A DNA stretch of 64,000 nt, taken from the NCBI GenBank assembly GCA_964535955.1, contig CAZHVK010000007.1, positions 4,118 to 68,117 on the forward strand. Direction: 5' to 3'. Shown piece by piece: positions 19,689-64,000 of this stretch. Each line of letters starts with the position of its first letter. Position 1 is the first letter of the stretch. This DNA comes from an uncultured Methanosarcinales archaeon (lineage in GTDB: Archaea; Nanobdellota; Nanobdellia; Woesearchaeales; CAXGTL01). The notes beneath the pieces were generated by a model, which had not been told where the DNA came from, ran no database searches, and saw nothing but the letters and a program-made list of their open reading frames with translations. Position numbers and translations under genes: made by a program.

Positions 19689-20540
19689 TTAATAATCTAA
19701 AATACCATACCAATACAACAATAATCTGTCAACAGCTTTTGTTAATTCTTTTTCTTTACCAGAAACAATAACACAATTATCTTTTAATTCTACTTTTGTT
19801 TGATTATCATATTTTATAAATATCACTGCTTTATCAGTATTATCACATGTAATGATTGGTCTATCCTTACAAGAAACTGTAAAATTCTCTGCACATGCAG
19901 AAACAATGTCTCTATTGATTGCTTGTTTTAGATTAAGGCTCAACTCAGCAGAAGCTAGTGTAACATAAGTCAATCTTTCTGTAAACCCATCCATTGGTTC
20001 AAAAGTAATATAAACTTGATCATCATTAATAAAAGCATCATTTAATTTACCTTCTAAAGGAACATCAATAACTTCTCTTGGTCCAAAATGTAGTGGAATA
20101 TTATAATCCCTTCCTGTTCTGTCATTATGCAGAGTAAAGTACCACAAACTTTCAATATATTTGAATTCAATATTTTTAAACACATAACTATCTTCAACAA
20201 CTCCTTTAATATTCCTGCCTGTTATTGCACTATCAAAATCCTCAAGTTTGCTTGCAACAAAAAATTGATTATAATAAACTAAACCTAGTATTAGAATAAC
20301 AATGATTATTAAAGAAAACACAACATTTTTAGAACTTTTATCAGAACTTTGTTTTTTATTGTTTGTTTCTGTATCTGGTTTTTCTTCAGTTTTTTCTTGA
20401 TTATTTGTTTCTTGTTGATTATCTTTGTCTTTTTGTCTATTTGTTTCTATATTTTCTTGTTTTTCTTCAGAATTACTAACTATATCTGTATTTCCAATAG
20501 AAACAAATTCTTCTTTACTATCACTTTGCTCTTTTTCCAT
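19689..20540 (-). CDS. membrane protein with low-complexity cytoplasmic N-terminus
   Basis: K/E/Q/T-rich N-terminus, one TM (FSLIIIVILILGLVYY), ~190-aa C-terminal domain. Confidence 0.4.
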   Translation of the reverse strand: MEKEQSDSKEEFVSIGNTDIVSNSEEKQENIETNRQKDKDNQQETNNQEKTEEKPDTETNNKKQSSDKSSKNVVFSLIIIVILILGLVYYNQFFVASKLEDFDSAITGRNIKGVVEDSYVFKNIEFKYIESLWYFTLHNDRTGRDYNIPLHFGPREVIDVPLEGKLNDAFINDDQVYITFEPMDGFTERLTYVTLASAELSLNLKQAINRDIVSACAENFTVSCKDRPIITCDNTDKAVIFIKYDNQTKVELKDNCVIVSGKEKELTKAVDRLLLYWYGILDY

Positions 20541-23746: not shown

Positions 23747-23770
23747 TGTATTGTTAGGCTACGTTAAATG

Positions 23771-23786
23771 CCCTCTATAAAGAGGG
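23771..23786. promoter_or_regulatory. perfect 6-bp-stem palindrome CCCTCTATAAAGAGGG between operon end and polB promoter
   Basis: inverted repeat; AT-rich TATA-like box lies just promoter-proximal on the minus strand. Confidence 0.3.
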
Positions 23787-23878
23787 TCATTTTAGCCTTT
23801 TTAGTGTATGGGTGAGTTTTATGGTATATAAATATATCTATGTTGTTGTATGTTTTTCTTATCCTATTTCTTTTTCAC

Positions 23879-24463
23879 TTATTTCTCTTTAGTCTTTAGA
23901 TAACCAAAATCACCAATATCTCCTGGATTAGTTCCATCTAATATATGCTCTGCAATTTTCTTCATTGTATACTGTCCACCACAATCAGCTTTGATCAATT
24001 CTATTGCATAACTTCTATGTGCAACTTGTTCTTTCTTATACATATCACAATGACAGCACACTAGTGTTATGTCTTTTCCTCTTTCTCCTGTTTTCCAATC
24101 ATGGTTAATCATTCCAGCTGCTTGAAGTGACTGGTCTAATGCATTTGTTCCTGCATATACAAACACATGTTCAATAAGGTCAGCATCTTGTCTAAGATTG
24201 AATTGTTCATAAAACTCATCAACAACTCTTTGTGCTTGTTCTCTTTTTCCTTCATTTGACCTATCATGACCTTCCCATCCATAGATGATGAGTCTTCCAT
24301 CTCCATAAACACCTGGCCTAAAGTCTTCAACACGTCTGTATGTCATTAGAACAATTGCTTTTTTTCCATTCTGTTTTAGCATTTGTTCTAGGTTTTGCTT
24401 ATCTACCACTCTTCCATTGTATTTTGGTTCTTGTTTTTTTTCTTTTTCTTTGTTTTCTTCCAT
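23879..24463 (-). CDS. hypothetical protein, paralog of the C-terminal domain of the upstream gene (conserved HVFxYxGxNA / CxCHxD motifs)
   Basis: 194 aa; aligns with residues ~190-330 of the 24470-25531 product (MTYxRV, GxLxIY, RVxDxFY, HVFVY, HD, CCHCD). Confidence 0.5.
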   Translation of the reverse strand: MEENKEKEKKQEPKYNGRVVDKQNLEQMLKQNGKKAIVLMTYRRVEDFRPGVYGDGRLIIYGWEGHDRSNEGKREQAQRVVDEFYEQFNLRQDADLIEHVFVYAGTNALDQSLQAAGMINHDWKTGERGKDITLVCCHCDMYKKEQVAHRSYAIELIKADCGGQYTMKKIAEHILDGTNPGDIGDFGYLKTKEK

Positions 24464-24469
24464 TTTTAT

Positions 24470-25531
24470 TCACCTTGTTCTATTTCTTATCCCTCTTGTC
24501 TTTTTCCATCTCCTTTTTTTTCCATTACCAATCTTTCCAACACCTTTTTTCTTGTTTGTTTTATAATCTTCAACAATCATGTTAGCAATTGTCTGCAGAT
24601 CACTTTCATATATCAGATCCATGTCATGAGCATCTGCAGTCTTTTTCTTCTCATCATAATGACAACCGCACGAAGCTAGTGACACTTTACCATGTAGGTC
24701 ATGTTGTATGTACAAAGCAGCATCTAACATTTCTTTCCAAGCATTTAACCCAGAATACAAAAACACATGTGCAATCTCATCACCACGCTGTCTAAGATTA
24801 TCAAAATCATCATAAAACTGGTCAATTACTCTTTTCGCAATACCAACAGCATGATCACCACCAAACTCCACACCAGAGATCTTTGCATCATATATTCTTA
24901 GTTTTCCACTACAATGTACACCATAACAAGGTTTGACTCGATTGTAAGTCATGATAACAATAGCTCCATCAGCATCAACTAATCCTCCATACTTAAGTAT
25001 TAATTCTATATCTTTTCTTTTACTGTTCAAACTACCTTTCTTATACCTTACAGAAGTATGTAATTCACCATAAACATCAAATTCATATTTATGCGGATTC
25101 CAAGGCATTGTAAATCTTGTACCACTTACTTGTTCATAATCTATTGATTGTTTTTTATAATCAATTGGAATAATATTTCTAATGTTTTCAAACATGTCAC
25201 TTAATTTCTTAGCATTTTCAGCACTTTCAATATCCTGTCCAAATAATATTCCATCTATTGCTGAATAATCAATCCCATTACAAGGTTTCCCATCTAAACA
25301 ATCTTCTAAACATGGAAGCCTGACTACCTTGACTTTCATCTTAGTTTGATTACTATTATTATGCCTGCCTGGTTGTTTAAATTCATAAACATCTGATAAA
25401 AGTTTATGAAAACCACGTTTTTCCATGCTTTGTTCATCAGGCTCAGCACTTATCAAACCAAGCACATATTCATATTTTATTTGTTCAATTTGTTTTTTTA
25501 ATTCTGATTCATTTATTGACATTTTATTCAC
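24470..25531 (-). CDS. hypothetical protein, N-terminal Cys-containing domain plus the paralogous His/Cys-motif domain
   Basis: 353 aa; C-terminal half paralogous to 23879-24463; Arg/Lys-rich tail. Confidence 0.5.
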   Translation of the reverse strand: MNKMSINESELKKQIEQIKYEYVLGLISAEPDEQSMEKRGFHKLLSDVYEFKQPGRHNNSNQTKMKVKVVRLPCLEDCLDGKPCNGIDYSAIDGILFGQDIESAENAKKLSDMFENIRNIIPIDYKKQSIDYEQVSGTRFTMPWNPHKYEFDVYGELHTSVRYKKGSLNSKRKDIELILKYGGLVDADGAIVIMTYNRVKPCYGVHCSGKLRIYDAKISGVEFGGDHAVGIAKRVIDQFYDDFDNLRQRGDEIAHVFLYSGLNAWKEMLDAALYIQHDLHGKVSLASCGCHYDEKKKTADAHDMDLIYESDLQTIANMIVEDYKTNKKKGVGKIGNGKKRRWKKTRGIRNRTR

Positions 25532-25971
25532 CTTTTATATTCCTCTACATACATCTCTACCAAATCTTTTAATTTGAATGTTATTTCTTTTGTTTTAACA
25601 ATTTCTTGTACTTGTGATTTAACAAAACTTCTCACATCTTGAGGTGATCCGCTTGTATAGATAATTGGAATCTTGTCATCAATATCTCTTATGTCACTTA
25701 ATGTCTGTGGACCTTGTGCAATACCCTTGTATGCATCATTATCAAGCACAACCAATGAATAACACTCTGTTTCGATTTCATCAACAGCTTGGTCTTGTTT
25801 ACAATAAATAATCTCGATTCCATAATCTTTTTTTATTGCTTCTGAAAATGAAGTTTCATAAATAAGATCATCATCTACCCAAAGTATCTTTACAATGACA
25901 TCTACTGAAAGCTTTGCATCTTTAACATATTTTACATCTTCAAACTTCCCAAAATAATCATCATCAATCAT
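25528..25971 (-). CDS. receiver (REC) domain protein with N-terminal DYFGKFEDVKY motif
   Basis: ILWVDDD, LVVLDNDA, IPIIYTSG, K in CheY-like order; start placed at internal Met (MIDDDYF) so that the overlap with the LRR gene is removed. Confidence 0.5.
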   Translation of the reverse strand: MIDDDYFGKFEDVKYVKDAKLSVDVIVKILWVDDDLIYETSFSEAIKKDYGIEIIYCKQDQAVDEIETECYSLVVLDNDAYKGIAQGPQTLSDIRDIDDKIPIIYTSGSPQDVRSFVKSQVQEIVKTKEITFKLKDLVEMYVEEYKR

Positions 25972-25972
25972 T

Positions 25973-26473
25973 TTATATGTAAAACTGCACCCCTCTGTCA
26001 CATAATTTTTTGAGTTCTCTTTTAATGTCAGGATCTTTATTATCAATCAGATTTCCTACTAAATTCAGTCCTCGTAGTTCTTCTAAATCATCTAAATGTC
26101 TTATTTTTTTGATTTGATTGCGTACTAAATGCAGATATTGTAATCTGCTTAATTCAGCTATTTCTCTAGGGATCTCTTTTAGTCCTTGATTATCCAAGTC
26201 TAACCTGACGACATGTTTATTTTCAATTATCACATTAACATCATTATCATCTGCAGGAGGTTTATTAAAATATTCTTTAACATCTTTACCAAAATATTTC
26301 TGAGTCATAAACTGTAATACAGTATATTCATATGGATCCAGCCTGCTTCCATGAATATCAATAATTTCTTTTTTATCATAACCAATCTTAATTACAGGAA
26401 GTTCTGAATCTTCAACAAATTTCACTTTCCTAAATCTTTTAAAATATTCATCAAACATTTTTGTTACCTCCAA
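25973..26473 (-). CDS. leucine-rich-repeat protein with N-terminal EYFKRFRKVKF motif
   Basis: LxxLxLxxNxI repeats (LDLDNQGLKEIP, LQYLHLVRNQI, LRGLNLVGNLI). Confidence 0.6.
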   Translation of the reverse strand: MEVTKMFDEYFKRFRKVKFVEDSELPVIKIGYDKKEIIDIHGSRLDPYEYTVLQFMTQKYFGKDVKEYFNKPPADDNDVNVIIENKHVVRLDLDNQGLKEIPREIAELSRLQYLHLVRNQIKKIRHLDDLEELRGLNLVGNLIDNKDPDIKRELKKLCDRGVQFYI

Positions 26474-26530
26474 AATATTCTATTTTGATGGTCCATCAAA
26501 TTGTTTCTCAATTTGAGTTTCCTCCATCAA

Positions 26531-27244
26531 TCATTCTTTGTTCCTCAAAACTTTGTAATCCACGCAATGCACAATTGTTTTTTTAATATCAATATTATTT
26601 TCTTCAAAATAAGGTTTTAGATCATGAAGCACTTTGTTAAAACTATGTTTACTAGCAGCAGCAATCCTTATTGTACCATTACTCAGTATCCTAAACTCAG
26701 GTATTTTTTCCATTGTATGTGCAATATTTTTTTCATACAATTCTGTTGAAACAATATCACTTATCTCATGAGTCTTGGTATCAATCATCCTAATTCCTTT
26801 TCCTTTTTTGCTTATTCCACACGCAATTATCTTGTTATACTGTTTACCAACCACATTGCCAAGGACAACAGGCAGTATATCAGACACACAAATATCCAGA
26901 TTATATATTTCCTCAACAAACAACTGCAGATTAGCAAGATCAACAACCTTTGTAGTCAAGTAATACAAATGTCCATGAGACTTTTGTGTTCCTGTTCCAA
27001 TGTACAGTTCACCTAGGGTATTATCTTTTTTATTAGGAAGTATTCCTACAATATTTATCCTGCTCAAACATGTTCTTCCATAAGGAAGTGTAAAACTAAT
27101 ATCTTTGCCAAGATAAACATTAGCATTATCAATCCTTATTATTTGTTTCAGAGGCATGAATACTGAAGCTGTTTTCTTGCCTTTACCAGCAGCAACTTCA
27201 TGTTCAAGCTTTCCAAATCTATTAAAATAATTGTCTTGTGTCAT
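26531..27244 (-). CDS. hypothetical protein, member of a 3-paralog family in this operon
   Basis: shares DILPVVLG, GTG...Y, GIRMI blocks with 29521-30273; N-terminal NYFNRF. Confidence 0.5.
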   Translation of the reverse strand: MTQDNYFNRFGKLEHEVAAGKGKKTASVFMPLKQIIRIDNANVYLGKDISFTLPYGRTCLSRINIVGILPNKKDNTLGELYIGTGTQKSHGHLYYLTTKVVDLANLQLFVEEIYNLDICVSDILPVVLGNVVGKQYNKIIACGISKKGKGIRMIDTKTHEISDIVSTELYEKNIAHTMEKIPEFRILSNGTIRIAAASKHSFNKVLHDLKPYFEENNIDIKKTIVHCVDYKVLRNKE

Positions 27245-28797
27245 TTTAGATTTACATTTACCTCTCCAATTATAATATTAGGAATATCTTTAGGTTCTCT
27301 TACATGGTATATCATGAAATCAGCATCATTAAACTGTTCTTGATAATGTTCAACATCATATCTTCCAGTATAAACAACACAGACCCTGTTCACATCAGGC
27401 AGATTTTTAAGATAATTAAAAAACATATCCAACCCACTTATCTCAAGATCAGACACAACAACAATGTCTAGTTCTTTTTCAGACTCAGTAACAATCTTTT
27501 TCAATTTTTCAAGATTTTTATTATCAATAACAGTTCCGCCATTGTTTGACTTTGTAAGACCAGAAAATATACTCAATTGATCAGTCTGAAAACTTTTTTC
27601 TAATTCTATGTCATCAACAACTGCATTAAACAGATAAACACCTACTTTTGATTCATTCTCTAGATAAGCTTTTGCAGTTGCAACACAAGCAGCTTCTGCA
27701 TAAGGCTCGCAATGTGTCATACTTCCTGATATATCCTTGATTATCAATACATTTGGCACCTGGTCAGAATCTTTGTAAGCAATTCCTTGTTCTTTTATCC
27801 ATGTTTTACCCAAACCAGGACAAAATGGTTTTCCAAGTGAAGCAAAAACATCTACATCAAGCGGATTATCATCTATTTCATACTCTTTGTGTGAATAAGG
27901 AAACATTGACCCATTTTCATGTATTTTTCTTTTCCTTATCTCAGGCCTGTAGTTTTCAGCAAGATTCTCAAAATAAATAATGTCTCTTAATTTATTATCA
28001 CCAACCATATTACCAGGCAGTATACCATTTGCAACAAGACGACCCACAATTTTATCAAATTCATCTTTGTCTTTTGAACATGCTAATTGTTTCAAAGCTT
28101 TCTTGATTTCATTTTTATCATATGCTTTTTCTCCAAACACTCCAAAACCAGGCATACCCATTGACAAATCTTCTGGCTTCATACCATAAAGATTCATGAT
28201 ATCAACAATTATTCTTGTAAATCTTTTAACATTTCTTACTTCATTTTTTGCATCAAAATAATCAATTGTTGACAATCTCTCTACTTGTTTTTTCAGGAAT
28301 TTATCTAATTTATTTTGTTTTAATCCAAGATCTTTTTTTATTGCATTCTGCATATATGCTTTGATAACTTTCATAACAGGATTGTTTGGTTTGATAACCC
28401 TTAGAAAGTCAGTGATTTCATCAACATTTTTCTTTAGTATTAGATCTAGGTTAACACAAACATCAGAATAAATTCTTGAAGCCTGCAGCCCAATATTTTC
28501 ATCAACTTTTAGACCAGCTTGATCCATTAAAATAGCTCTAAAAAGATCATACGGATTATACAGATAATGATCAATTTCATGTGACAATAATCCTGTAAAT
28601 ATTGTATCATATGATAATCCTTTTCCATGTAATTCTTGAACAAATGCATCACATACTTCTATTTGATGATCCCTCATATCAATTGAAGCTGTTTGAGTCT
28701 CATCAAAACCTACTAACATTGGCCTTGGCAAATTAGGAAAATAAAACTTTTTTCTTACTAATTTCCAGTTTTCCAGCATTATTTGTTCTAGGTTCAT
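27241..28797 (-). CDS. von Willebrand factor A (vWA) domain protein
   Basis: C-terminal MIDAS motif DISGSMT followed by an alpha/beta pattern; start set at Met-13 giving ATGA overlap with the upstream gene. Confidence 0.55.
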   Translation of the reverse strand: MNLEQIMLENWKLVRKKFYFPNLPRPMLVGFDETQTASIDMRDHQIEVCDAFVQELHGKGLSYDTIFTGLLSHEIDHYLYNPYDLFRAILMDQAGLKVDENIGLQASRIYSDVCVNLDLILKKNVDEITDFLRVIKPNNPVMKVIKAYMQNAIKKDLGLKQNKLDKFLKKQVERLSTIDYFDAKNEVRNVKRFTRIIVDIMNLYGMKPEDLSMGMPGFGVFGEKAYDKNEIKKALKQLACSKDKDEFDKIVGRLVANGILPGNMVGDNKLRDIIYFENLAENYRPEIRKRKIHENGSMFPYSHKEYEIDDNPLDVDVFASLGKPFCPGLGKTWIKEQGIAYKDSDQVPNVLIIKDISGSMTHCEPYAEAACVATAKAYLENESKVGVYLFNAVVDDIELEKSFQTDQLSIFSGLTKSNNGGTVIDNKNLEKLKKIVTESEKELDIVVVSDLEISGLDMFFNYLKNLPDVNRVCVVYTGRYDVEHYQEQFNDADFMIYHVREPKDIPNIIIGEVNVNLK

Positions 28798-29528
28798 AGT
28801 TCTGACAACCTCATCATCGGCCTCCACCTGCATGCAAAATAAGGATATTGCAGATATTTGTTAATCACCATTGCCATGTCATTTCTTTCTGCCAAGACAA
28901 CTTGAACCCTTTCTGCCGTCATTGAATCATGCTTATATGTTGAACCAGTTGAATAAACAGTGATAAAATCATTTGGAATATCATAATTATAAATACGCAC
29001 TAAAAAAGTTTCCAAAGAGTTTGCATGATCAATAACCTCTTCTTTACCATATAATCCTGAAAAATAAACTACTTTCTCAACTTCTTTAAATTCTATATCA
29101 TCTTTAAAATCACTAGTCAATTTTTCAAAGTGATAAGCAATACAATTTGAAACATCTTTTCTATGACCATGATCAGGTCTATAATCTAATGTAATATATC
29201 CTTCATCAAGATACATAAATGGATCATACATCAAAAGCTCATCTGTCTTGATCCTATTATCAACTTCAATCATCTTTGAAAATTGTTTCATCAGCTTTGA
29301 AAGCTTTGAATAATATTGTATTTCATTAATACCAGGCGCAATAATATCATTTACCAAATTATATAACATAGGATATTGCTTAGCATGTTTATGATTAACC
29401 CTCACAAAATCCAAAGCCTCATAAGTCACAACAATCAATTTTGGTTTTAGTTTCTCAATTACCAATTCCTTTATATCTTTAAATTCCACATCCTTGAATT
29501 TTTCAAAATATTCATTCATTTTAATCAA
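28794..29528 (-). CDS. hypothetical protein with N-terminal MIKMNEYFEKFKDVEFKD motif
   Basis: 244 aa; N-terminal 25 aa nearly identical to the next gene product. Confidence 0.5.
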   Translation of the reverse strand: MIKMNEYFEKFKDVEFKDIKELVIEKLKPKLIVVTYEALDFVRVNHKHAKQYPMLYNLVNDIIAPGINEIQYYSKLSKLMKQFSKMIEVDNRIKTDELLMYDPFMYLDEGYITLDYRPDHGHRKDVSNCIAYHFEKLTSDFKDDIEFKEVEKVVYFSGLYGKEEVIDHANSLETFLVRIYNYDIPNDFITVYSTGSTYKHDSMTAERVQVVLAERNDMAMVINKYLQYPYFACRWRPMMRLSEL

Positions 29529-30273
29529 CTCTCTTGATAAGGTAATAATTTTTACAATACTCCAGTGTTTTTTCCAAACTTATAGCATGCTTTTTAAGAT
29601 AAGAACCAAGATCAACTAAGTTCTCACTCCTAATACAATTATCATCAAAGACCATCTTAAGCAAGATCTTGTTTTGATCATTATCAATCATAAAACTAGG
29701 TACAAAACCAGTTGGAAATGGTTCTAGTTTCTTGTATTCTTTGTTTGATATTATATCAGTAATAACATTATCACTACACTTGATCATTCTCAATCCTTGA
29801 GAATACATGCTTCTTCCACACACAAGCAAATGTTCTGAAGGATAGCCCTCAAACAGTTCTTCATCTTCAAGCACAACAGGCAAAATATCTTTTACAAAAA
29901 CATCTACTGAACTTATTCTCTTAAGATATATCTCATTTTCTGATGTATCTTTATTTTGTTTTAATCCAAATGTATAGATATTACCCATAGCGCAGTCTCC
30001 TGTTCCTGCATAAATCCTTGTTGCATCATCAAAATATTCTCTATCAATATAAGTACCACAGACATTAATCCTATGACAAGGACCCAAAGGATTATATTTT
30101 GCTTTGACAGGAACTTCAAACATTAGTTTATTGTCTAAATATACTTTTTTGTCATTGTAACTCAGCCTATTCACAAACACTGGTTTTTGATTTGGTTTTT
30201 CAGCTAGTAAAATCCCTATCTCTTTATATTCCACATCCTTAAACCTGTCAAAATAATCATTCATTTTAATCAA
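29521..30273 (-). CDS. hypothetical protein with N-terminal MIKMNDYFDRFKDVEYKE motif, paralog of 26531-27244
   Basis: 250 aa; conserved blocks DILPVVLE, GTGDCAMGNIY, GLRMIKC. Confidence 0.5.
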   Translation of the reverse strand: MIKMNDYFDRFKDVEYKEIGILLAEKPNQKPVFVNRLSYNDKKVYLDNKLMFEVPVKAKYNPLGPCHRINVCGTYIDREYFDDATRIYAGTGDCAMGNIYTFGLKQNKDTSENEIYLKRISSVDVFVKDILPVVLEDEELFEGYPSEHLLVCGRSMYSQGLRMIKCSDNVITDIISNKEYKKLEPFPTGFVPSFMIDNDQNKILLKMVFDDNCIRSENLVDLGSYLKKHAISLEKTLEYCKNYYLIKRVD

Positions 30274-30274
30274 C

Positions 30275-31636
30275 TCATTCTGACTGACCCTGATCTAGTG
30301 CTTCTAATCTTGTATCTCTTTCTAATTCAGGAAATATTGGATGATTCTTATCACTAGCATATTCAGCTGCCTTGCTTATCAAACCTTGTTTTCTAAAACA
30401 CACATAATTCTTAACAAAAGCAGCTTGATCTCTAAATCTGTCTGAAATACCTTTTGCAAGTTTCTGCATTGCATAAAGATTAAGTACCATTGCTTGTTGA
30501 TCTTTTTCAAGCCCAGTCAAATAACTAGACTGCATTTCAGCTTTGTGCCAAGTCACATAAGGCAGTACTTTATACATGTGCTCAATATTTACTTCATCAG
30601 CACCAGTATACCATGCAAGTGCTCTTGCATATTTTTTCCATGCTTTTAATGTTCTTGCTGATAATGGATTCTTTATATTCTGACAAGCAAAATCACTCCA
30701 ATGACATTCATTTGAAAAACATTTGTCATTTTTTCTTTTTACTCCAAGCCTATGCTGGCATGTTGACAATTCTGTGTCAGCAAATATAAAATACAGTTCA
30801 GCATCATCATTAATTCTTATATCCTTGATTTCTTCTTCAGCTTTTTTTAATTCTTCATAACCTAGTAATTGAATTCCAAGCCCTTCTCCCAATTTCCACT
30901 TAAACTGTTCAATAATTACCTTGACTTCTTGCATTTTTTCTTGGTAAGACTTGCCTTTTGCATTATAGATGCCAAATATTTGGTTTGCAACAACAGCATT
31001 TTCTAATAATTTATGCGCGCCATTATCCATCTCAGAGATCCTGCTTCTTTGGGTAACACTTGGTGACATTGATTCTGTTGCAATGTCAAACCTTTCAACA
31101 ATAACTTCTGTCAAAGCTTGGTTAGACCTGTCAGCCCAGTTACAAGTAGCAAACAATGGAAAATCTCCTGTTCTGATCATTCCAGATAAATATTTCCAAT
31201 TACCTCTATCGATTCCGTCTACAAACAAGTTTAGTTTTGATCCAGGAAACCTACTAAGCTCATCAATTATTTTTGCTCTGTTAAGAACAAAATAAGTCCA
31301 TATAATTGTTTCATCTCCTAGTTTTGTCAAGTCACCAAGATGCGGCCTTGCAATTGTTTTTTCTTCTGTCTGCTCAGCATGTCCTCTTATTTCTGACGCA
31401 AGCACAACTTCTCTTGGCAGACCATACATCAAGCTGACAACACTTTCACATGAAGTCGTCTTTCCAAGACCATACTCTCCATAGATCATGTGCTTTCCAT
31501 TCACAATGCATGACAAGATCTCAAACAATAATGATGAGTTAAACTCTTTATCATCTATCATAATGTCAGGCACACACAAGTACAGATTTTTTTTTGCATA
31601 ATCATATATTTCATTGACTTTTTCTCTAAGTTCCAT
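30275..31636 (-). CDS. P-loop NTPase (AAA/MoxR-like?)
   Basis: Walker A GEYGLGKTT, downstream LNLFVDGIDRG (Walker B-like) and LNRA segment; long helical C-terminal region. Confidence 0.5.
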   Translation of the reverse strand: MELREKVNEIYDYAKKNLYLCVPDIMIDDKEFNSSLLFEILSCIVNGKHMIYGEYGLGKTTSCESVVSLMYGLPREVVLASEIRGHAEQTEEKTIARPHLGDLTKLGDETIIWTYFVLNRAKIIDELSRFPGSKLNLFVDGIDRGNWKYLSGMIRTGDFPLFATCNWADRSNQALTEVIVERFDIATESMSPSVTQRSRISEMDNGAHKLLENAVVANQIFGIYNAKGKSYQEKMQEVKVIIEQFKWKLGEGLGIQLLGYEELKKAEEEIKDIRINDDAELYFIFADTELSTCQHRLGVKRKNDKCFSNECHWSDFACQNIKNPLSARTLKAWKKYARALAWYTGADEVNIEHMYKVLPYVTWHKAEMQSSYLTGLEKDQQAMVLNLYAMQKLAKGISDRFRDQAAFVKNYVCFRKQGLISKAAEYASDKNHPIFPELERDTRLEALDQGQSE

Positions 31637-32402
31637 TTTTATACCTCTTTGTAAATACCTCTTTTAATTTTGCTTCAACATAAAAAGTGACTTTTTCATC
31701 AATATCATATTTTCCATGTTCTATTTCTGCAAAAAATATACGAAAATATGCATCAGTTTCTAAACTAGGATCTATCTCACAAATTTTTTCATAGACTTCA
31801 GAAGGTTTCACACCTATATCTTTTAGATCTAATAAATTATCTACAAGTTCTTTTTTAGGAACAGGAAGTTCAATACCAGGTATTGGTTGAACACCTACTT
31901 CAACCTGTCTTGCAAGGTTATAACCTTGCACAAGTATGTCTAATGCAAGGGCTTGTTCATCAATTGGTTTGTCCTTGTTTTTGTATTTTAGAAACTCTTC
32001 TCTAGGATTATCACTTTTCACAAGTATTTCAAGCATTTTCATGTAGTGATCTTTACCAACATTCTTTGAAACAGCAATATCAATTACATCTTTATCAAAC
32101 TCTGCTTCATTTCCACCAGTATTACCAAATATAGGAACATCATAAACATGTTTTACAGCTTTTGCTAGACAATTACCTTCATTTCCTTGTTTTAGAATAC
32201 TTTTATTATCATCAACAGGCATATCTTTGTCAGTTATGATTGCATCTGGTCTTTCAGCTAATGCTTTTTCAATACCTTGATCAGCATTTTCAGCAGTGAT
32301 TATCTCTAAGTTATGGTCAATCTTTTTCAGATACTTGACTACTTTATCAAGATATTTTTTATCATCATCTACAACCAGGATTTTCTTTTTTTGTTTATTC
32401 AT
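31626..32402 (-). CDS. receiver (REC) domain protein with unknown C-terminal domain
   Basis: KKILVVDDD..., IITDKDMP (phospho-Asp position), conserved Lys; 258 aa. Confidence 0.6.
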   Translation of the reverse strand: MNKQKKKILVVDDDKKYLDKVVKYLKKIDHNLEIITAENADQGIEKALAERPDAIITDKDMPVDDNKSILKQGNEGNCLAKAVKHVYDVPIFGNTGGNEAEFDKDVIDIAVSKNVGKDHYMKMLEILVKSDNPREEFLKYKNKDKPIDEQALALDILVQGYNLARQVEVGVQPIPGIELPVPKKELVDNLLDLKDIGVKPSEVYEKICEIDPSLETDAYFRIFFAEIEHGKYDIDEKVTFYVEAKLKEVFTKRYKNGT

Positions 32403-32404
32403 TT

Positions 32405-32788
32405 TTATCTCCCCGCATATCTTGGATTTTTTTCAACAGCAGACTCAAGCATCCTACCTAGACAACCTAATTCTCTTCCCAAATACTTTCTCTCATTAGG
32501 AAGTTCATTCATATAATTGCTCAACCCAATCAAATAATTAGCAAGACTTCTAGTTGGTACTCTTGGTTCAGGCAATACATGAGCATATTTCCCATCATAA
32601 GTCCATATTGCATCAATAAAACAGTCAACAATATCATACTCAAAATCTTCAAAGTCTTTGTCCATCACAAAATCAGAATCTCTTGCCAAGTCTTCTAAAA
32701 GTTTGATATAATTTTCAAATACCCTAACTGCTTTTTTTGCAATAAACTGTTTATAGTATTCCAAGTTTTCTTTTTGTTCTGGTTTCAT
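32405..32788 (-). CDS. hypothetical helical protein
   Basis: 127-aa ORF, 2-nt gap from the REC gene. Confidence 0.4.
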   Translation of the reverse strand: MKPEQKENLEYYKQFIAKKAVRVFENYIKLLEDLARDSDFVMDKDFEDFEYDIVDCFIDAIWTYDGKYAHVLPEPRVPTRSLANYLIGLSNYMNELPNERKYLGRELGCLGRMLESAVEKNPRYAGR

Positions 32789-33093
32789 TTTAATTCATCC
32801 TCCAACATTCTTAATTTTTTCTCAACATCACCTAACAAGATACATGAATCAAAATCAAATATCTTTAACATTTTTTCATAATCACCTATGTCGTGTTTGA
32901 TTATTTCAGAACCTCTTTTTCTATCATCAATTGCAAACACACAATCATATTCATTCTTATTATACACAAGCAATTTCTTAACATCACCATACCTACAAGC
33001 ATGAATTTCCATATTTTCAAACAATCCAAGCACTTGCTTTAGACTATGTCTTTGTTGCTTATTTTCTGAAACAACCAATATTTTGTATTCCAT
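32785..33093 (-). CDS. small degenerate receiver-like protein
   Basis: YKILVVSEN...VFAIDD pattern reminiscent of REC but lacking canonical acidic pocket. Confidence 0.35.
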   Translation of the reverse strand: MEYKILVVSENKQQRHSLKQVLGLFENMEIHACRYGDVKKLLVYNKNEYDCVFAIDDRKRGSEIIKHDIGDYEKMLKIFDFDSCILLGDVEKKLRMLEDELK

Positions 33094-33113
33094 TTTATCT
33101 TATCCACGTCCTC

Positions 33114-33437
33114 CTAATCCTCTTTTTCATCTGGTTTTTTGTAAGGATCTTTTGGATCATAGCCATAAGGCCATTGATCTGCATAAGGGGATTTATCTAA
33201 AACAGCCTCTTTTTTAGGCCTTTTCCCATCACGCATTTCCTTGATAATTTGATAAATCTCTTTGACTATTTTATCAATCTGAGAATCTTCATCTTCAAAA
33301 TCACCAATATAATTCTTCTCCATTAAATCATAAACAATCTTATCAAACGCTTTCTTACGTTTAACAGGATCAGATTCTAGAACAATCCTTACTAAATAAC
33401 TTTCATCTTTATCTTCATTGTCTTTCATTGGTCTCAC
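33114..33437 (-). CDS. hypothetical acidic/basic small protein (first gene of operon)
   Basis: 107-aa ORF; 160-bp AT-rich divergent promoter region upstream. Confidence 0.35.
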   Translation of the reverse strand: MRPMKDNEDKDESYLVRIVLESDPVKRKKAFDKIVYDLMEKNYIGDFEDEDSQIDKIVKEIYQIIKEMRDGKRPKKEAVLDKSPYADQWPYGYDPKDPYKKPDEKED

Positions 33438-33599
33438 CCATATACTTTATATTATACATCATAATCACAATAAAACCATGATTCTTGTTGTACTTACTAT
33501 ATAGTAGGGATGAAACAACTATTAATATGTTTTTCATATTATTAATATTAATAATATTAAACCGAAAGATTTATATAGAGCAAGCACAATCACAATAAT

Positions 33600-34526
33600 A
33601 TGATAAAAAGAAAACTCATCAAACAAGGATTGGGTGGATTTACAATATATCTGCCTAAGAAATGGATAGACCACTACAAACTAAGACCAGGAGATGAGAT
33701 AAACATATTAGAAGTAGAGAATAATCTCTTGTTATCAGCAAAAGCAAGACATGAAACAAAACAGATAACACTTAATTTTACACAAGAACACATAGATAAG
33801 ACATTGATCAGGATAAGCTTGAATGATGTATATAGACTAGGATATGACAAGATCACAGTCAATTACAAGACAGCTGAACAAAGAAAAAGAATTCTAAAGA
33901 TCGTTGATGAATATTTGCTTGGGTTTGAAGTGACAGAAGAGAAAAGAGATAAATTTGTAATTGAAAATGTGACAGAGCCAAGTGAAGAAAAGCAAGAAAC
34001 AATTGTCAAGAGAATGTTTTATCTTATCAAAGAGAGTTTTAAGACAGTAAATAAACACATGGCAAAAAATGAATTCAAAAGAATAGATAAGATGAGCCAA
34101 TTAACAAAAAAAGTCGATAGATATAATAATTACTGCAGAAGAAATATTTCTAAAAAAAGGTTTCAGAATGAAAGAGTGTATTTTTATTGGGGTCTTTATA
34201 TCCAGCTTTTATTGATACAACACAGCTTGTTTTATTTTTATAGGGTAATGCATGATACAAAAAAGATAAAGATCAAAACAAGCATAATAAAAATATTCAA
34301 GCAACTGCAGTCTAATTTTGATGAACTGACAACTGCATTTTTTAAAAAAGATTGTAATGAAATAGGAAAGATAAACAACAGGACAAACAAATATTTCTAC
34401 AACCATATACAAAAACAGATCATCAAGTCAAAAGGCAAAGATTCTTTATTATTATATTATCTTGGAGAACTCGGTAGAGTGATCTATCTCTCAACATCAC
34501 CTATGCTTGGGATCTTGTTTGAGTAA
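33600..34526 (+). CDS. AbrB/SpoVT-type swapped-hairpin N-domain regulator with PhoU-like helical C-domain
   Basis: N-terminal LIKQGLGGFTIYLPKKWIDHYKLRPGDEINI matches AbrB-type DNA-binding fold; helical remainder as in archaeal AbrB-PhoU regulators. Confidence 0.45.
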   Translation: MIKRKLIKQGLGGFTIYLPKKWIDHYKLRPGDEINILEVENNLLLSAKARHETKQITLNFTQEHIDKTLIRISLNDVYRLGYDKITVNYKTAEQRKRILKIVDEYLLGFEVTEEKRDKFVIENVTEPSEEKQETIVKRMFYLIKESFKTVNKHMAKNEFKRIDKMSQLTKKVDRYNNYCRRNISKKRFQNERVYFYWGLYIQLLLIQHSLFYFYRVMHDTKKIKIKTSIIKIFKQLQSNFDELTTAFFKKDCNEIGKINNRTNKYFYNHIQKQIIKSKGKDSLLLYYLGELGRVIYLSTSPMLGILFE

Positions 34527-34551: not shown

Positions 34552-36474
34552 CTAATTTTGATAAAGATAATCAAATACAGTGTCAGCTACATCAAGATAA
34601 TTCTTTACAACACTATTATCATATTCATATGACATTTCAACAAACCTTGCTAATCTAAGACTTTCTGTAAACACACGTTCAATTGATCTCTTTGTAAAAG
34701 TATTCTTAACAACAAAATCATTATCAAAATGATTTCTCAGCTTGACATAATTACCAACATATTCAATTACTTTGCCAATATCACACCCAGATTCTAACTC
34801 AAAACCTTGGTCAAGCAAAGCCCTTGCAATATCTTTATACTCTGCACCAGCAGCAGCTCCTGAATAATCACCTAAAACTTCTGAATCAAACCAATTATCA
34901 TCTTTAGTATCATTGTGCGCAACTGTTCTTTTTTCATAATGCTCTGAATTCTTTGAAATATTTTCATACAATCTTTTGTATTTTTCAAAATCCTGTTCTT
35001 GTTCTATTGTATCACACAAACCCATTTTCAATTTATTAAAACTAAAGAATTCTGCATAAGTTCTTTTATTAAAAAGCACATCATCAACATGGTTTTTCAT
35101 CTCAGTATGAAACATTGACAAAACATACATTCTATGGTTATATTTATCATCTTCAATACCCAGCTTATCAAATAATTCTTGTTTAACATGATCAAGTGTT
35201 TTTTCATTGTCTTTTGTATTTTTTGTTTTCTCATTTGCTTCATCTTTTCTATCTTGACCAATGATCTTAGTGCACACAATAAACAAATTTTCATTATCAA
35301 GACTACCACCATTATTAAAATTATAAACTTTTGTTGTATATTTTGCTAACTGATCATTTTTACTAGCTATTTGTGAGACTAATTTTTCTTTTTCATATAA
35401 TGATCTTCCCATACAAACTTTTGGAAAAAAATCTTTTGTACCTAGGATAGCACCATGACTAGCGATCAGCTCTTTCTCATGATCCTGAAAACCATCTAGG
35501 TTGTGTCCTGACAAATAAAGTATTGGAACCTTTTTATTGAATCTTTTCAATAATCCGCTTACTTCTCTTAATGTTTCAATACCAGTGCCTAATGCAGGCC
35601 CACACACCCAATTATTATCAATAAATATTGCAGCACAATTTTCAAAATCCTCTTCCTTAGGATAATAAGCAAAATCATGCACAATTACTTTTTCATTTGC
35701 ATAAGGTCTATTATCTCCTAGATTCAGAAACTCTTTATCACTTAACACTAAAAAATGATAATTCATCCTTGTCTGCATATTACCAGCACGCAGTGATTTA
35801 TCAATATAAGGTAAAAATTTTTTCCACATATCATTTTTATAACTATGCTGCCATCTTGATAATGAATAACTAGGCACCATTGTTCCTGTCAATTGATAGA
35901 ATAAGATATGCATCATCGTAGGAAAATTCTCAAAATCAGTCATCTGTGCATCTGAATATACTTTTGCAAATTCTGACCCATACAATGTTGAAAGACCTTT
36001 GATCAAAGCCATTTCACTCATATGACCATTATGATTAGATTTATAATTTATGATTTTTATTCCAGGAAAATCTTTTCTTAATTTTTCAGCAGTCAATAAT
36101 TTTTCACCAACCTTGCATATTCCTCCAAAACTTTTTCTTTTATTAATCTTAACAACAGCAAAACTTGGTTTTTGCAGACCTCTGGATTTGACACTTCTTA
36201 AGATACTTTTATATTTCTGATTTCCTTTCATAACTTCTTCATGAGAAAAGTCAACAAGCAAAAGATCTATCCCATTGTGCTTGATAAACTCCTTACATTC
36301 ATCTTCAGCATAAGCATGTAAGACATAATCAGAAGGATAATAATCATTTACCTTCCAACAAGAATCATCAACTACAATGATTGTTCCTTTTTTCTCAGTT
36401 AATATCTTTTCTATTTCTTGATCTAGTGAAACTTTCTTTTTCTTAATATCTACACCATTATCTACATTAGCCAT
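34552..36474 (-). CDS. large hypothetical protein with REC-like N-terminus
   Basis: GTIIVVDDS...IDLLLVDFSHEE receiver-like; central region with CGPALGTG and LYLSGHNLDG motifs; 640 aa. Confidence 0.4.
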   Translation of the reverse strand: MANVDNGVDIKKKKVSLDQEIEKILTEKKGTIIVVDDSCWKVNDYYPSDYVLHAYAEDECKEFIKHNGIDLLLVDFSHEEVMKGNQKYKSILRSVKSRGLQKPSFAVVKINKRKSFGGICKVGEKLLTAEKLRKDFPGIKIINYKSNHNGHMSEMALIKGLSTLYGSEFAKVYSDAQMTDFENFPTMMHILFYQLTGTMVPSYSLSRWQHSYKNDMWKKFLPYIDKSLRAGNMQTRMNYHFLVLSDKEFLNLGDNRPYANEKVIVHDFAYYPKEEDFENCAAIFIDNNWVCGPALGTGIETLREVSGLLKRFNKKVPILYLSGHNLDGFQDHEKELIASHGAILGTKDFFPKVCMGRSLYEKEKLVSQIASKNDQLAKYTTKVYNFNNGGSLDNENLFIVCTKIIGQDRKDEANEKTKNTKDNEKTLDHVKQELFDKLGIEDDKYNHRMYVLSMFHTEMKNHVDDVLFNKRTYAEFFSFNKLKMGLCDTIEQEQDFEKYKRLYENISKNSEHYEKRTVAHNDTKDDNWFDSEVLGDYSGAAAGAEYKDIARALLDQGFELESGCDIGKVIEYVGNYVKLRNHFDNDFVVKNTFTKRSIERVFTESLRLARFVEMSYEYDNSVVKNYLDVADTVFDYLYQN

Positions 36475-36641: not shown

Positions 36642-38111
36642 ATGAAAAAGATAAACACATTATTGGTGATAGAAATATTCTTAATAATCTTATTTGCAAC
36701 ATCTGTCTTAGCAGTAAAAGATTCAACAGGTGCCTTTGACGTTGAGATCAAACCAGTTACAGACAAGATCACAGTTTATGGAACAGCAAAATTTACAATA
36801 ACAGTTAACAATCATCTTTCAAAAGAAGATACTTACACATTAAAGTTTGGAGATTATACTAATTGGAAAATATATTATACAGAGCCTCACACAGATTATA
36901 TGTCTGGGTTTGAAGTAGGGGCAGGTAGTTCTTATACAACAAAAGCATTTTTCAGACCAGATAAAGAGATTGGCAAAGGTTATAAAGTAATTGAAATGAC
37001 TATTAAATCAGAATCAACAGGTGAAAAATTAGAATTTGCAGTTCCTGTTTATATGATTTCATTAGATGCAGCACAAAAACAATATCTTCCAAATGTAAAA
37101 GTGGATGTAGATTTCCCTGAAAAAATAGACCCAAGAGATGAACTAAATCTTAAAGTAACATTAAGAAACTTAAACATAAAAAACATAAGTAGCTTAGAGG
37201 TTTATGTTGAAAGTGATTCAATCAATGAATACCAGCTAACATCATTAGAACCTGAACAAGAAAGAGTAATCAATTTTCCAATTCAGTTAGATCCATTACA
37301 TCCTCCTGAAAAAGATATTCTAAAGGTTAAAGCAATCACAGAACCATATGAATTTACAGCCTCAAGACAAGAATTTGAGATCATTGATTATACTTCAGTA
37401 TTTGACAAACAAGAAGAATTAACAACATCTTTATTTAAGAAAACAAAAACAATTGTCTATAAAAACATTGGCAATGTAGATAAAAGCCAGACAGTTAGAG
37501 TAGTAGCACCAATATGGAAAGTTTTCCTTTTTTCAGTATCACCAAAGGATTACTCAGTTGTCAAAGAAGAAGGAATAAGATATTATTCATGGGATCTTAA
37601 ATTAAACCCAGATGAAGAACAGCAAATTATTGTTGTTACAAATTACAGGGTCATATTCTATTTCTTTCTTTTGATTATCATTGGTTTTATTTCTTACAAT
37701 ATGTTTAGAAGTCCTGTACAGATAACAAAATTAGCAAAAAATATTGAACTTCATAAAGGTGTTATTTCAGAAGTCAAAGTAATGCTTAACATAAAAAACA
37801 TTAGCAATAAGCAGCTAGGAAACATAAAAATCTTAGATAAGATACCAAACATGGCAAACATTACACAAGACTTTGACATTGGCACTGTAAAACCATCTAA
37901 GATAATGAAACATGAATCACAAGGTTACACAGTTGTAAGATGGGACTTAGATGAATTAGACCCAAATGAAGATAGGCTTATTACTTACAGAATGAAGTCA
38001 AGGCTAAGTATATTTGGCAATTTTGACTTGCCTAGAGCAAAAGTCAAGTACAAGACAAGTGCTGGTAAGAAAAGAGTTGTAAGGTCAAATAAATTGGTTA
38101 TACATGCTTAG
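36642..38111 (+). CDS. secreted protein with C-proximal TM anchor (surface protein)
   Basis: signal peptide (LLVIEIFLIILFATSVLA), beta-rich body, TM IFYFFLLIIIGFISY near residue 340. Confidence 0.45.
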   Translation: MKKINTLLVIEIFLIILFATSVLAVKDSTGAFDVEIKPVTDKITVYGTAKFTITVNNHLSKEDTYTLKFGDYTNWKIYYTEPHTDYMSGFEVGAGSSYTTKAFFRPDKEIGKGYKVIEMTIKSESTGEKLEFAVPVYMISLDAAQKQYLPNVKVDVDFPEKIDPRDELNLKVTLRNLNIKNISSLEVYVESDSINEYQLTSLEPEQERVINFPIQLDPLHPPEKDILKVKAITEPYEFTASRQEFEIIDYTSVFDKQEELTTSLFKKTKTIVYKNIGNVDKSQTVRVVAPIWKVFLFSVSPKDYSVVKEEGIRYYSWDLKLNPDEEQQIIVVTNYRVIFYFFLLIIIGFISYNMFRSPVQITKLAKNIELHKGVISEVKVMLNIKNISNKQLGNIKILDKIPNMANITQDFDIGTVKPSKIMKHESQGYTVVRWDLDELDPNEDRLITYRMKSRLSIFGNFDLPRAKVKYKTSAGKKRVVRSNKLVIHA

Positions 38112-60596: not shown

Positions 60597-60629
60597 TTAG
60601 ATAAATATAAATGCCACAAAATCATTGCA

Positions 60630-60719
60630 TGGGTCTGGCCGGACTCGAACCGGCGATTAACGCCTATCTTTTCCTAATGGAATGTAAGGGCGCTGTCATA
60701 GCCACTAGACCACAAACCC
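60630..60719 (-). tRNA. tRNA-Val(UAC) with ~17-nt anticodon-loop intron
   Basis: reverse complement: GGGTTTG TG GTC-TAGTGGCTAT-GAC A GCGCC CTTACA[intron]A GGCGT TAAT GCCGG TTCGAGT CCGGC CAGACCC A. Confidence 0.7.
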
Positions 60720-60778
60720 AATTATATATAGAAAACAAACCACATATATAAAAAGGTTACTGTAAAAAGCTTTATATA

Positions 60779-61849: not shown

Positions 61850-61953
61850 TTTTTTTTAAGAAACATCAAAAATACAGAGTATTTTTGTGGCTTTGAAATT
61901 CCATAAGAATTTCAAAAGGTTTTTAAACAAATATCAAATAATTTAAATATACT

Positions 61954-62028: not shown

Positions 62029-62098
62029 TTTATTATTCTCAATCATAGATAACTTTTTAAGTGCAATACGAATTCTCAGTTTATTAAAACAAAAATAG

Positions 62099-64000
<1,902 letters not shown>

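Follow-up and report, generated by a model that had tools for sequence, protein, structure and literature searches.

A Woesearchaeal operon in which a MoxR-class ATPase, its vWA partner and receiver proteins are associated with a candidate N-terminal address peptide

The closest described systems to the one reported here pair a MoxR-class AAA+ ATPase with a von Willebrand factor A (vWA) protein, and the characterised pairs mostly serve the maturation of metal centres or cofactors (PMC13036017, PMC9976466). In NorQ-NorD, a finger is placed in the pore and the metal ion-dependent adhesion site (MIDAS) or the linker acts on the target (PMC13036017), and under a more general proposal a peptide is first captured by the vWA partner and then let go by the MoxR ring in a changed state (PMC7159879). 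The vWA pair of the "ternary" conflict systems is thought to derive from CoxD/CoxE-like pairs (PMC7159879). Here we analysed a 64-kb chromosomal stretch of contig CAZHVK010000007.1 (the window), whose proteins have closest relatives labelled Candidatus Woesearchaeota (DPANN), and in it an operon of 13 minus-strand open reading frames (ORFs), G01 to G13, at positions 23879-33437. To our knowledge, client choice by MoxR-vWA pairs is poorly understood, even for NorQD, CbbQO and RavA-ViaA. We propose, with a probability of roughly one half, that the products of the operon form a MoxR-vWA remodelling machine gated by phosphorylation, to which clients or adaptors are directed by a peptide common to their N-termini (the tag), a feature missed by an earlier note on this DNA.

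All 13 ORFs were present at the coordinates of that note, and an independent gene caller run on the source contig returned the same set, in agreement with its description of tightly packed minus-strand genes forming one conserved, coupled cluster. The junctions range from -11 to +20 nt, with G09-G10 as the sole exception. There the gap is 57 nt with the TTG start of G10 and 72 nt with the ATG start, which is better supported by a GGAGG lying 9 nt upstream. Comparison of gene neighbourhoods bore the cluster out: synteny is kept in at least six other Woesearchaeota-type contigs, and at least six divergent genomes (ATPase identity 44-58%) share the interleaved order receiver (REC)-ATPase-tagged protein-vWA-tagged RECs-G13.

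The proposed engine consists of G05 and G08 (Table 1). In G05, the Walker A residues G56-L-G-K-T-T61 (G56xGKT60), the Walker B pair D125-E126, the sensor-1 residue N166 and the Arg finger R182 were invariant in 22 family members. Several of the 32 database homologues match AAA_5 and AAA_lid_2 and carry the JGI names MoxR-like or ChlI, and profile matches from the Protein Data Bank (PDB) fell on MoxR 2r44 and on the ChlI lid. By its motifs, G05 is a catalytically intact MoxR-class AAA+ ATPase. The window protein scored 19.8 bits against AAA_lid_2 (cut-off 22.7) and left AAA_5 unmatched, its orthologue at locus L033 scored 26.5 and 22.1 against the two models, and NCBIfam returned nothing for G05. 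An invariant stretch between Walker A and Walker B, G85-x-x-E-Q-T-E-E-K...R97-P98, is a candidate for the pore helix-2 insert, and the Cys4 insertion immediately ahead of the lid domain may bind Zn or an Fe-S cluster or act as a redox switch.

The C-terminal domain of G08 has the Rossmann-like vWA fold, and its MIDAS residues D355, S357, S359, T422 and D450 were conserved in 69/69 members. VWA_CoxE was the only Pfam family to recognise the G08 family (6 of 9 members, best E 5.4e-8; window G08 unmatched), and NCBIfam gave only a weak ViaA match. Residues 295-343 were modelled with a predicted local distance difference test score (pLDDT) below 50, yet E307, D316, S320, G322, K323, P327, G328, W333 and G338 are at least 90% conserved across the 69 members; as in NorD (PMC13036017), the segment may form an interface or "finger" that meets the ATPase pore or the tag.

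Relatives of G05 were found in 353 tblastn-confirmed stretches (one genome per GTDB species), mostly from Thermodesulfobacteriota and otherwise from Methanocellales, Latescibacterota, Muiribacteriota and Woesearchaeota. Of the 90 loci examined, 79 have a G08 relative just downstream of the ATPase, no more than 2 kb away and in the same orientation; the loci without one were contigs ending too soon after the ATPase, except in one organism. By this distribution the G05-G08 pair is an ancient, widespread module, and by homology the core belongs to the known MoxR-vWA kind, in a family unnamed by any curated model. The view of the earlier note that no described system matches the operon is supported: Pfam and NCBIfam gave no match at the level of a system, PADLOC none of relevance, and the literature was negative. 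The combination does have relatives, as the ATPase and vWA protein belong to a MoxR-vWA family found in hundreds of species. At one bacterial locus (L004, 10001-11353) the ATPase stands alone beside a rimP-nusA-infB operon, and the surrounding 10 kb on either side hold no vWA gene.

The ATPase and vWA genes of bacteria and Methanocellales are separated by a third gene, about 230 codons long. Its product comprises a helical region and a GXGXG beta-helix (PF01493, E 1.8e-11 to 1e-4) and starts with MxN[PS]FxxF[KR] in 41 of 47 cases, the bacterial form being NPF[ED][DE]F[KR]. In the Woesearchaeal operons this third position is taken by G07, orthologues of which lie directly upstream of the vWA gene in L001, L008, L010, L012 and L013. 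PF01493 was not found in G07 or its Woesearchaeal orthologues, and when the G07 family was compared with the bacterial GXGXG protein by hhalign, only the N-terminal 16 residues aligned. The Woesearchaeal consensus of the tag is [FY][FY]x[KR]F.

A six-frame scan of the 64 kb for [FY][FY]x[RK]F with 60 or more codons after it returned the N-termini of G06, G07, G09, G10 and G11 and nothing else, a count of 5 among the 13 operon genes and 0 among about 51 others (hypergeometric p ~1.7e-4). The K/R codons vary among the copies in the window, which indicates that selection acts on the peptide. Tagged proteins elsewhere number seven in L001 (where seven proteins begin MS[YF]YK[RK]F), four each in L010 and L012, three in L013 and two in L008, every one within an ATPase-vWA operon, and a minimal Woesearchaeal clade has one tagged protein after the vWA gene (K[FY]Y[GS]MYD). 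In every case the tag opens the protein and leads into a charged linker 10-25 residues long, and its consensus is kept across genomes while the remainder of the proteins diverges. Pfam placed none of ten tagged proteins from other loci above threshold, giving a weak TPR match only.

A full HMMER search of 1.84 billion representatives, with G13 and the C-terminal half of G12 as queries, returned 33 relatives, among which P0066 (MMDFFKKFKDVEEQ) is the only tagged protein. Its siting beside the engine was predicted before looking and was borne out: on its 933-bp contig, P0066 lies between two partial genes, first the 3' end of one for a G05-type ATPase (E 4e-29), then the 5' end of one for a G08-type vWA protein (E 6e-9). 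For the untagged fusions of a REC domain to a G13-type domain (REC::G13) P0045, P0046 and P0050, no ATPase or vWA gene was found within 10 kb in the three readable contexts. We consider the conservation and placement of the tag to be strong evidence that the peptide is selected as such and tied to the ATPase-vWA engine. Judged by its distribution, the same peptide is copied onto a variable set of further Woesearchaeal operon members, here G06, G09, G10 and G11.

We infer that the tag serves to dock its proteins at a hydrophobic site of the ATPase-vWA complex. The G05 ring would engage G08, tagged proteins would dock via their aromatic peptide, and ATP hydrolysis would remodel or exchange them, altering their conformation or assembly state by analogy with NorQ-NorD and CbbQ-CbbO; alternative tagged proteins may compete for one engine or load on it in turn. 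Receiver phosphorylation would gate the remodelling, with G04 before the ATPase, G11 with its split output G13, an AbrB-PhoU regulator and the kinase-like neighbour U640 as the putative signalling parts. More tentatively, and with the odds somewhat against it, the aromatic-x-x-aromatic-basic N-terminal motif could be a transferable address label that recruits receivers, leucine-rich-repeat (LRR) proteins, the GXGXG beta-helix and other folds to the MoxR-vWA machine from Thermodesulfobacteriota to DPANN, coupled in Woesearchaeota to an APH-kinase-driven receiver pathway with a Cys-triad output.

The N-terminal helical domain of G08 carries a HEIDH motif around which H73, H77, P82 and D112 were conserved in 69/69 members, D84 in 67/69 and C81 in 65/69. 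E74 was found in 17/69 only, being replaced by G or A in bacteria, and the Woesearchaeal proteins retain the full HExxH. An ancestral HExxH peptidase was considered for G08 and dropped, as the Glu is missing in 52 of the 69 members and the motif is for that reason probably not that of a peptidase; profile and structure searches gave no peptidase match for this domain. The H73/H77/C81/D84/D112 cluster is more likely a metal site.

The same domain bears on a different view of the tag, in which the HExxH domain of G08 would cleave or recognise it as a leader, pro-peptide or degron, with the operon serving processing or quality control. The complete HExxH of the Woesearchaeal proteins, the constant position of the tag ahead of its linker and the strand-then-HExxH-helix layout of the G08 model, which by our own reading resembles minimal zincins, would all suit this view. 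However, the tagged third protein is present although most members lack the catalytic Glu, and no peptidase family profile matched; we consider processing improbable.

Under the proposed remodelling machine, gating would fall to the receivers. In G04, D13, T57-D58-K59-D60, T95-G96 and K113 were invariant in seven orthologues, and D13, D58, T95 and K113 align with CheY D13, D57, T87 and K109. G04 lies directly upstream of the ATPase in L001, L008, L012, L013 and L019, and its orthologues of L001 and L012 are also tagged at the N-terminus. G11 retains most receiver active-site residues, and its orthologues follow the vWA gene in L001, L008, L010, L012, L013 and L092. The earlier note had called both proteins receivers, and the Pfam scores (30.1 and 23.8 bits), the invariant acceptor residues of G04 and the alignment of G11 orthologues with CheY agree; its Walker-A ATPase and MIDAS vWA protein, with invariant motifs, and its LRR protein (LRR_8, 36.9 bits) were likewise upheld. 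The third, degenerate receiver that it listed, G02, proved weakly REC-like (FleQ, E 0.029), with ILVVSEN where the CheY alignment would have DD.

Seven further proteins had been left unrecognised and assigned to paralog families, an assignment that stands for two pairs: blastp related G06 to G09 (E 1.6e-15) and the C-terminus of G12 to G13 (E 1.3e-16). G01 and G03 are singletons without a paralogue in the operon, and G07, G12 and G13 are, judged by alignment and a model, derived receiver-fold domains, G07 matching the G13 family by hhalign with a probability of 70.6% (E 3.9e-5, 92 columns). The same method found no relationship between G06/G09 and the G13 family.

All 31 members of the G13 family have C137 and C139, and at least 90% have K144, C161, G162 and G163. 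In the model, the conserved Y42, Y103/G105 and Cys/K/CGG positions directly follow strands 1, 3, 4 and 5, the places that hold D12/13, D57, T87 and K109 in REC domains. By this model, the phospho-pocket of the receiver fold has turned into a Cys triad that may serve metal binding or redox chemistry. In G12 the alignment with G13 has the CGG element deleted. A G11-type receiver and a G13 domain are adjacent in five loci and fused in P0045, P0046, P0050, P0055, P0058 and P0060; judged from these fusions, the two proteins are a split response regulator with a new output. A metagenome scan for the G13 family found only three loci, so that few full systems have been counted. Among individual members, G12 has a basic tail (KKKGVGKIGNGKKRRWKKTRGIRNRTR, 24470-24550) that is absent from G13 and other members and may contact nucleic acid or membrane, and P0062 (467 aa) has a repeat-rich C-terminal extension of about 320 residues that is beta-propeller-like by eye. 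Genes for class-I S-adenosyl-L-methionine (SAM) methyltransferases lie between the ATPase and the G07-type gene in L001 (11365-12480) and L008 (7930-9078); a SAM methyltransferase gene following an engine-less REC::G13 fusion in L098 (10934-12043) gave no phmmer match to the L001/L008 set.

These cysteines and the G08 site bear on the main rival explanation, that the operon encodes a maturation chaperone for a metal centre or cofactor, of the CoxD/CoxE, NorQ/NorD or chelatase type, in which the tagged proteins are clients or carriers, the receivers only regulate, and the G13 Cys triad and the G08 His/Cys/Asp site handle metal. We judge it unlikely overall, and it is kept alive by the G08 site, with its invariant H73, H77 and D112 together with C81 and D84 in a family mostly devoid of the peptidase Glu. 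The invariant ATPase Cys4 insertion, the invariant CxC...CGG of G13, VWA_CoxE as best Pfam match of the vWA family and the ChlI-like ATPase lid are consistent with it, as are the anaerobic hosts and the work that most characterised MoxR-vWA pairs do (PMC13036017, PMC9976466). However, no metalloenzyme client is conserved beside the module, the bacterial neighbourhoods vary, the bacterial GXGXG third protein lacks obvious metal ligands and G07 has lost the cysteines.

Neither HisKA nor HATPase_c nor Hpt was found in the 13 products or flanking genes; a scan of part of the remaining window ORFs gave MutL as the sole match to HATPase_c. Upstream of the operon lie an AbrB/SpoVT-PhoU type protein, which is likely its transcriptional regulator, and the 640-aa protein U640. 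An orthologue of the former occupies the same divergent position in L001, L008, L010, L013 and L019 and also adjoins ATPase-less REC::G13 fusions (L094, P0050 locus). U640 is syntenic in four genomes, with orthologues in L001, L008 and L010 (E 4e-83 and similar). By motif, its segments IIVVDD (N-terminal) and AAIFIDNxW...PILYLSGH are REC-like, and towards the C-terminus H520-N-D522-x-K524-x-x-N527...G535-D536...K547-D548 are invariant in four orthologues. When U640 was compared with an APH protein by hhalign, exactly this stretch aligned with HNDxxxxN...IDWG (E 0.06). Pfam APH matched two of the four orthologues (best E 6.7e-5), window U640 being unmatched. The absence of a histidine kinase or HPt reported in the earlier note holds for the products scanned, but the conserved U640 with its APH/protein-kinase motif had been overlooked. 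APH-family kinase genes also lie beside the AbrB-PhoU regulator and receiver genes, without dependence on the ATPase-vWA pair, at L010 (2843-5268), L094 (6443-8533) and the P0050 locus, and HAD phosphatase genes accompany them in two of these three loci.

Such loci fit an alternative in which two modules, one of REC, G13, AbrB-PhoU and kinase and one of MoxR and vWA, are merely adjacent and local 5' duplications account for the N-terminus that their proteins have in common. The nucleotides shared upstream of G06 and G07 would also suit this view. REC::G13 fusions with AbrB-PhoU and APH do occur without the ATPase (L094, L098, P0050 locus), and the bacterial ATPase, GXGXG protein and vWA protein occur without receivers. 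However, the interleaved order persists in at least six divergent genomes and the tag consensus outlasts the divergence of the proteins; tags on receivers tie the modules together, and tagged P0066 (L097), lying between an ATPase and a vWA gene, argues against chance. This side-by-side view was already disfavoured, and we regard it as very improbable.

Several points nevertheless weigh against the remodelling machine. G06 and G07 share about 20 nt upstream of their starts as well as the tag, and the tag could have spread by 5' duplication without function. It has no positionally conserved acidic residue between its bacterial and archaeal forms, which argues against simple MIDAS coordination; an acidic residue of the tag feeding the MIDAS was considered and dropped, no acidic position being common to the two forms. 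Co-transcription of the 13 genes is inferred from their spacing, and the proposal that an APH-type kinase (U640) replaces the missing histidine kinase for the receivers draws on genomic association. Profiles gave no assignment for G06/G09, G01, G03, the N-terminal half of G12 or the C-domain of G04. Finally, window G05, G08 and U640 all fall short of the Pfam cut-offs, and what identifies them is their orthologues, their motifs and one model.

The suggestion of the earlier note that the domain content is that of anti-invader systems found no positive evidence. On this reading the operon would be a MoxR-vWA "ternary" system of biological conflict, directed against viruses or other invaders, in which the pair would set a threshold and free effectors, the tag would be an adaptor, G06, G09, G12 and G13 would be effectors and the LRR protein would be a sensor. 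The architecture does parallel ternary systems, with a core, a third component and accessory proteins differing between close relatives (PMC7159879), and an LRR protein is present. A Mrr-like nuclease gene lies upstream of the minimal version in L003, L014 and L017, and L008 has a gene for patatin and another MoxR-vWA pair close by. However, the Mrr link is confined to syntenic close relatives and may be inherited rather than functional. Pfam revealed no toxin, nuclease, protease, TIR, pore or nucleotide-signalling domain in the 13 products and no VMAP, iSTAND, FtsH or beta-propeller third component, and neither Pfam nor PADLOC found an effector or an effector-associated domain. PADLOC-DB 2.0, a check that the earlier note had named, gave no relevant match: ten products returned only weak generic ones (REC to SduA/PDC-M60B; G09 to Csn2, E 4e-4). 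The bacterial version is a plain three-gene module, and the operon is flanked by housekeeping genes (PolB, Sua5, MutS/L, RNA polymerase), with uniform base composition and no adjoining mobile-element genes. A conflict role appears doubtful on this evidence, more so than metal maturation. A mobile or defence island was also considered and dropped because of the uniform GC content and these flanks.

In the minimal version, a small helix-turn-helix-like protein and a protein of the Mrr_cat nuclease fold precede the ATPase (L003 8842-9918, L014 8942-9895, L017 1915-2865). The second pair in L008 (14875-17026, minus strand), found also in L092, is a canonical MoxR (AAA_3/AAA_5) and VWA pair about 3 kb downstream on the opposite strand, beside patatin and metallophosphatase genes.

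The features of the operon and its upstream neighbours are collected in Table 1. No Pfam match was obtained for G01 or G03, and no homologue of either was found in other loci. G06 is the single member of its own 90% cluster and had no Pfam, NCBIfam, PADLOC or PDB match; NCBIfam likewise returned nothing for G07, G13 and U640, and PDB profile searches gave chance-level matches for G06/G09, the G07 family and the U640 family.

Table 1. Positions in the window of the operon genes, their motifs and tags, and the two upstream neighbours
Feature	Positions	Strand	Basis
U640, 640-aa conserved upstream neighbour: an N-terminal and a second REC-like segment and a C-terminal APH/protein-kinase-like domain	34552..36474	-	
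U640 catalytic-loop/Mg-binding motif, residues 520-548, HNDTKDDNWF...LGDY...YKDIA	34831..34917	-	invariant alignment columns
AbrB/SpoVT-PhoU type regulator, divergently transcribed	33600..34526	+	Pfam MazE_antitoxin (AbrB fold) E 9.3e-5, PhoU E 0.0019
Candidate archaeal promoter, TATA-like ATAATATAAAGTATA, just upstream of G01	33438..33480	-	read directly from sequence (inferred)
G01, small acidic/lysine-rich protein, 104 aa from ATG, lineage-specific	33114..33428	-	ORF and gene call
G02, degenerate REC-like protein without acidic pair	32785..33093	-	FleQ receiver profile E 0.029
G03, 127-aa protein, lineage-specific	32405..32788	-	ORF
G04, canonical receiver with poorly conserved helical C-domain	31626..32402	-	Response_reg 30.1 bits (cut-off 30.2)
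G05, MoxR-class AAA+ ATPase ("engine")	30275..31636	-	homologue profiles, invariant motifs, PDB profile matches
G05 Walker A GLGKTT	31454..31471	-	sequence and family alignment
G05 insertion Cys293-x12-Cys306-x4-Cys311-x6-Cys318, just before lid domain	30683..30760	-	invariant in 22 aligned family members
G06, tagged protein, paralogue of G09	29521..30264	-	blastp E 1.6e-15
G06 tag YFDRF (MNDYFDRFKDVEYKE)	30241..30255	-	
G07, tagged third core component: tag and G13-like (REC-fold) domain without cysteines	28794..29519	-	synteny, hhalign
G07 tag YFEKF (MNEYFEKFKDVEFKD)	29496..29510	-	
G08, ATPase co-factor: N-terminal helical His-motif domain, conserved flexible segment, C-terminal vWA/MIDAS domain	27241..28797	-	
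G08 HEIDH motif, residues 73-77	28567..28581	-	69-member alignment
G08 segment, residues 295-343 (...DVFASLGKPFCPGLGKTW...)	27769..27915	-	conserved yet low model confidence
G08 MIDAS DISGS, residues 355-359	27721..27735	-	conserved across 69 members
G09, tagged paralogue of G06	26531..27244	-	blastp
G09 tag YFNRF (MTQDNYFNRFGKLEHE)	27215..27229	-	
G10, tagged leucine-rich-repeat protein	25973..26458	-	LRR_8 36.9 bits, LRR_4 32.3 bits (cut-off 27 each)
G10 tag YFKRF (MFDEYFKRFRKVKFVE)	26432..26446	-	
G11, tagged small receiver (LWVDDD...LDNDAY...IIYTSG type)	25528..25971	-	Response_reg 23.8 bits; orthologues align with CheY
G11 tag YFGKF (MIDDDYFGKFEDVKYVKD)	25942..25956	-	
G12, N-terminal half, degenerate G13-type domain, basic C-terminal tail	24470..25531	-	start may be ATG at 25522
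G13, Cys-triad receiver-fold domain protein, partner/output of G11-type REC	23879..24463	-	
G13 residues 137-163, C137-x-C139...K144...C161-G-G	23975..24055	-	31-member alignment

The window has a GC content of about 30% and a uniform composition, and it also encodes MutL, MutS, RtcB, a family-B DNA polymerase, Sua5 and tRNAs; further ORFs read, from their N-terminal sequences, as RNA polymerase and ribosomal protein genes. Records of this sequence include a metagenome scaffold of 64 kb and an 88.7-kb contig. The flanks include a low-complexity single-pass membrane protein (19689-20540, minus strand) and a DUF11-like surface protein (36642-38111, plus strand), neither of which is syntenic with the system elsewhere. 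Upstream of the PolB start, at 23768-23790 on the minus strand, a TATA-like TTTATATA is separated from the polymerase ATG by a short inverted repeat, CCCTCT-TTATA-GAGGG. An ORF at 40271-40582 (plus strand) has a LAGLIDADG homing-endonuclease domain (LAGLIDADG_3, E 1.4e-9), and a short ORF just upstream in another frame (39822-40118, plus strand) is LAGLIDADG-like by eye; the two may be a split or decayed free-standing endonuclease gene. At 62099-64000 (plus strand) a PfkB-family sugar/adenosine kinase domain (E 6e-45) is fused to an S-adenosyl-L-homocysteine hydrolase (AdoHcyase, E 6e-108) in an ORF that exceeds the window end. Three tRNA matches were found, at 60629-60720 (minus strand), 61716-61849 (plus strand) and 61953-62029 (plus strand). 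Two of them, at 92 and 134 nt, are far above 76 nt, which suggests introns, and ARAGORN called tRNA-Glu(TTC) for two of the three.

In the literature we found no description of an operon-wide N-terminal address peptide, a Cys-triad receiver-fold domain or an association of APH kinase and receiver, and these three features are apparently undescribed. If the address label is real, it would be a previously unrecognised client-addressing principle for MoxR-vWA chaperones, and if the tag docks, it provides a simple recognition code, a peptide of 5-6 residues that can be synthesised, mutated and transplanted. The loci offer a natural series from the three-gene bacterial module to the 13-gene archaeal elaboration, and the operon would give a first functional handle on a block of DPANN "dark matter". 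An APH-type kinase, associated with receivers at several independent loci, is a candidate answer to how orphan receivers are driven in archaea without histidine kinases.

NorQ-NorD and CbbQ-CbbO resemble the present system in pairing a MoxR AAA+ ATPase with a vWA partner to remodel a target protein. However, NCBIfam and Pfam gave no NorD or CbbO match here, and there is no nitric oxide reductase (NOR) or Rubisco client. The ATPase is about 120 residues longer and has the Cys4 insertion, the partner has the HxxxH N-domain, a third protein with an aromatic N-terminal peptide is obligatory, and receivers and a kinase are attached. CoxD/CoxE, which mature the metal centre of CO dehydrogenase, are alike in their ATPase-vWA gene pair and in the VWA_CoxE match of the G08 family, but no cox structural genes were found at any locus, window G08 is unmatched, and the N-domain and third protein differ. 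From the Mg and Co chelatases (BchI-BchD, CobS-CobT) the system differs in that the N-terminal half of G08 is helical and without an AAA match and no BchH or CobN gene is nearby.

In the MoxR-vWA ternary conflict systems (Kaur, Burroughs, Iyer and Aravind 2020, PMC7159879), a couple, a third component and variable accessories are similarly joined by a shared adaptor element. Here, however, the third component is a tagged REC-fold or GXGXG protein rather than VMAP, iSTAND, FtsH or a beta-propeller, and what the proteins share is not a folded effector-associated domain but a peptide about 6 residues long. Effectors are not recognisable, and in place of multicellular prokaryotes the hosts are DPANN archaea and bacteria that live anaerobically.

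On the signalling side, ArnA/ArnB with the ArnC/ArnD kinases of Sulfolobus place a vWA protein in a Ser/Thr-phosphorylation network, a likeness at the level of the fold only (19% identity). ArnB lacks a MoxR partner, the G08 family lacks an FHA/Zn-ribbon partner, and the kinase here is APH-like, not Hanks. With two-component systems and response regulators phosphorylated by eSTKs the operon has in common the receiver active-site residues, all of them in G04 and most in G11. It differs in having no histidine kinase or HPt in the cluster, output domains that form a Cys-triad receiver fold or match no profile, and an APH-family kinase with REC-like segments of its own.

For the tag, the parallels are the cargo-loading peptides of encapsulins, the encapsulation peptides of bacterial microcompartments (BMC) and the docking of a UBL to the MIDAS of midasin, in which one short transferable terminal peptide marks several unrelated proteins of a cluster for a common partner. 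The likeness lies in the logic alone. There is no shell protein, as Pfam matched neither encapsulin nor BMC families, and the peptide here is N-terminal, aromatic and basic, with the ATPase-vWA complex as its presumed receptor.

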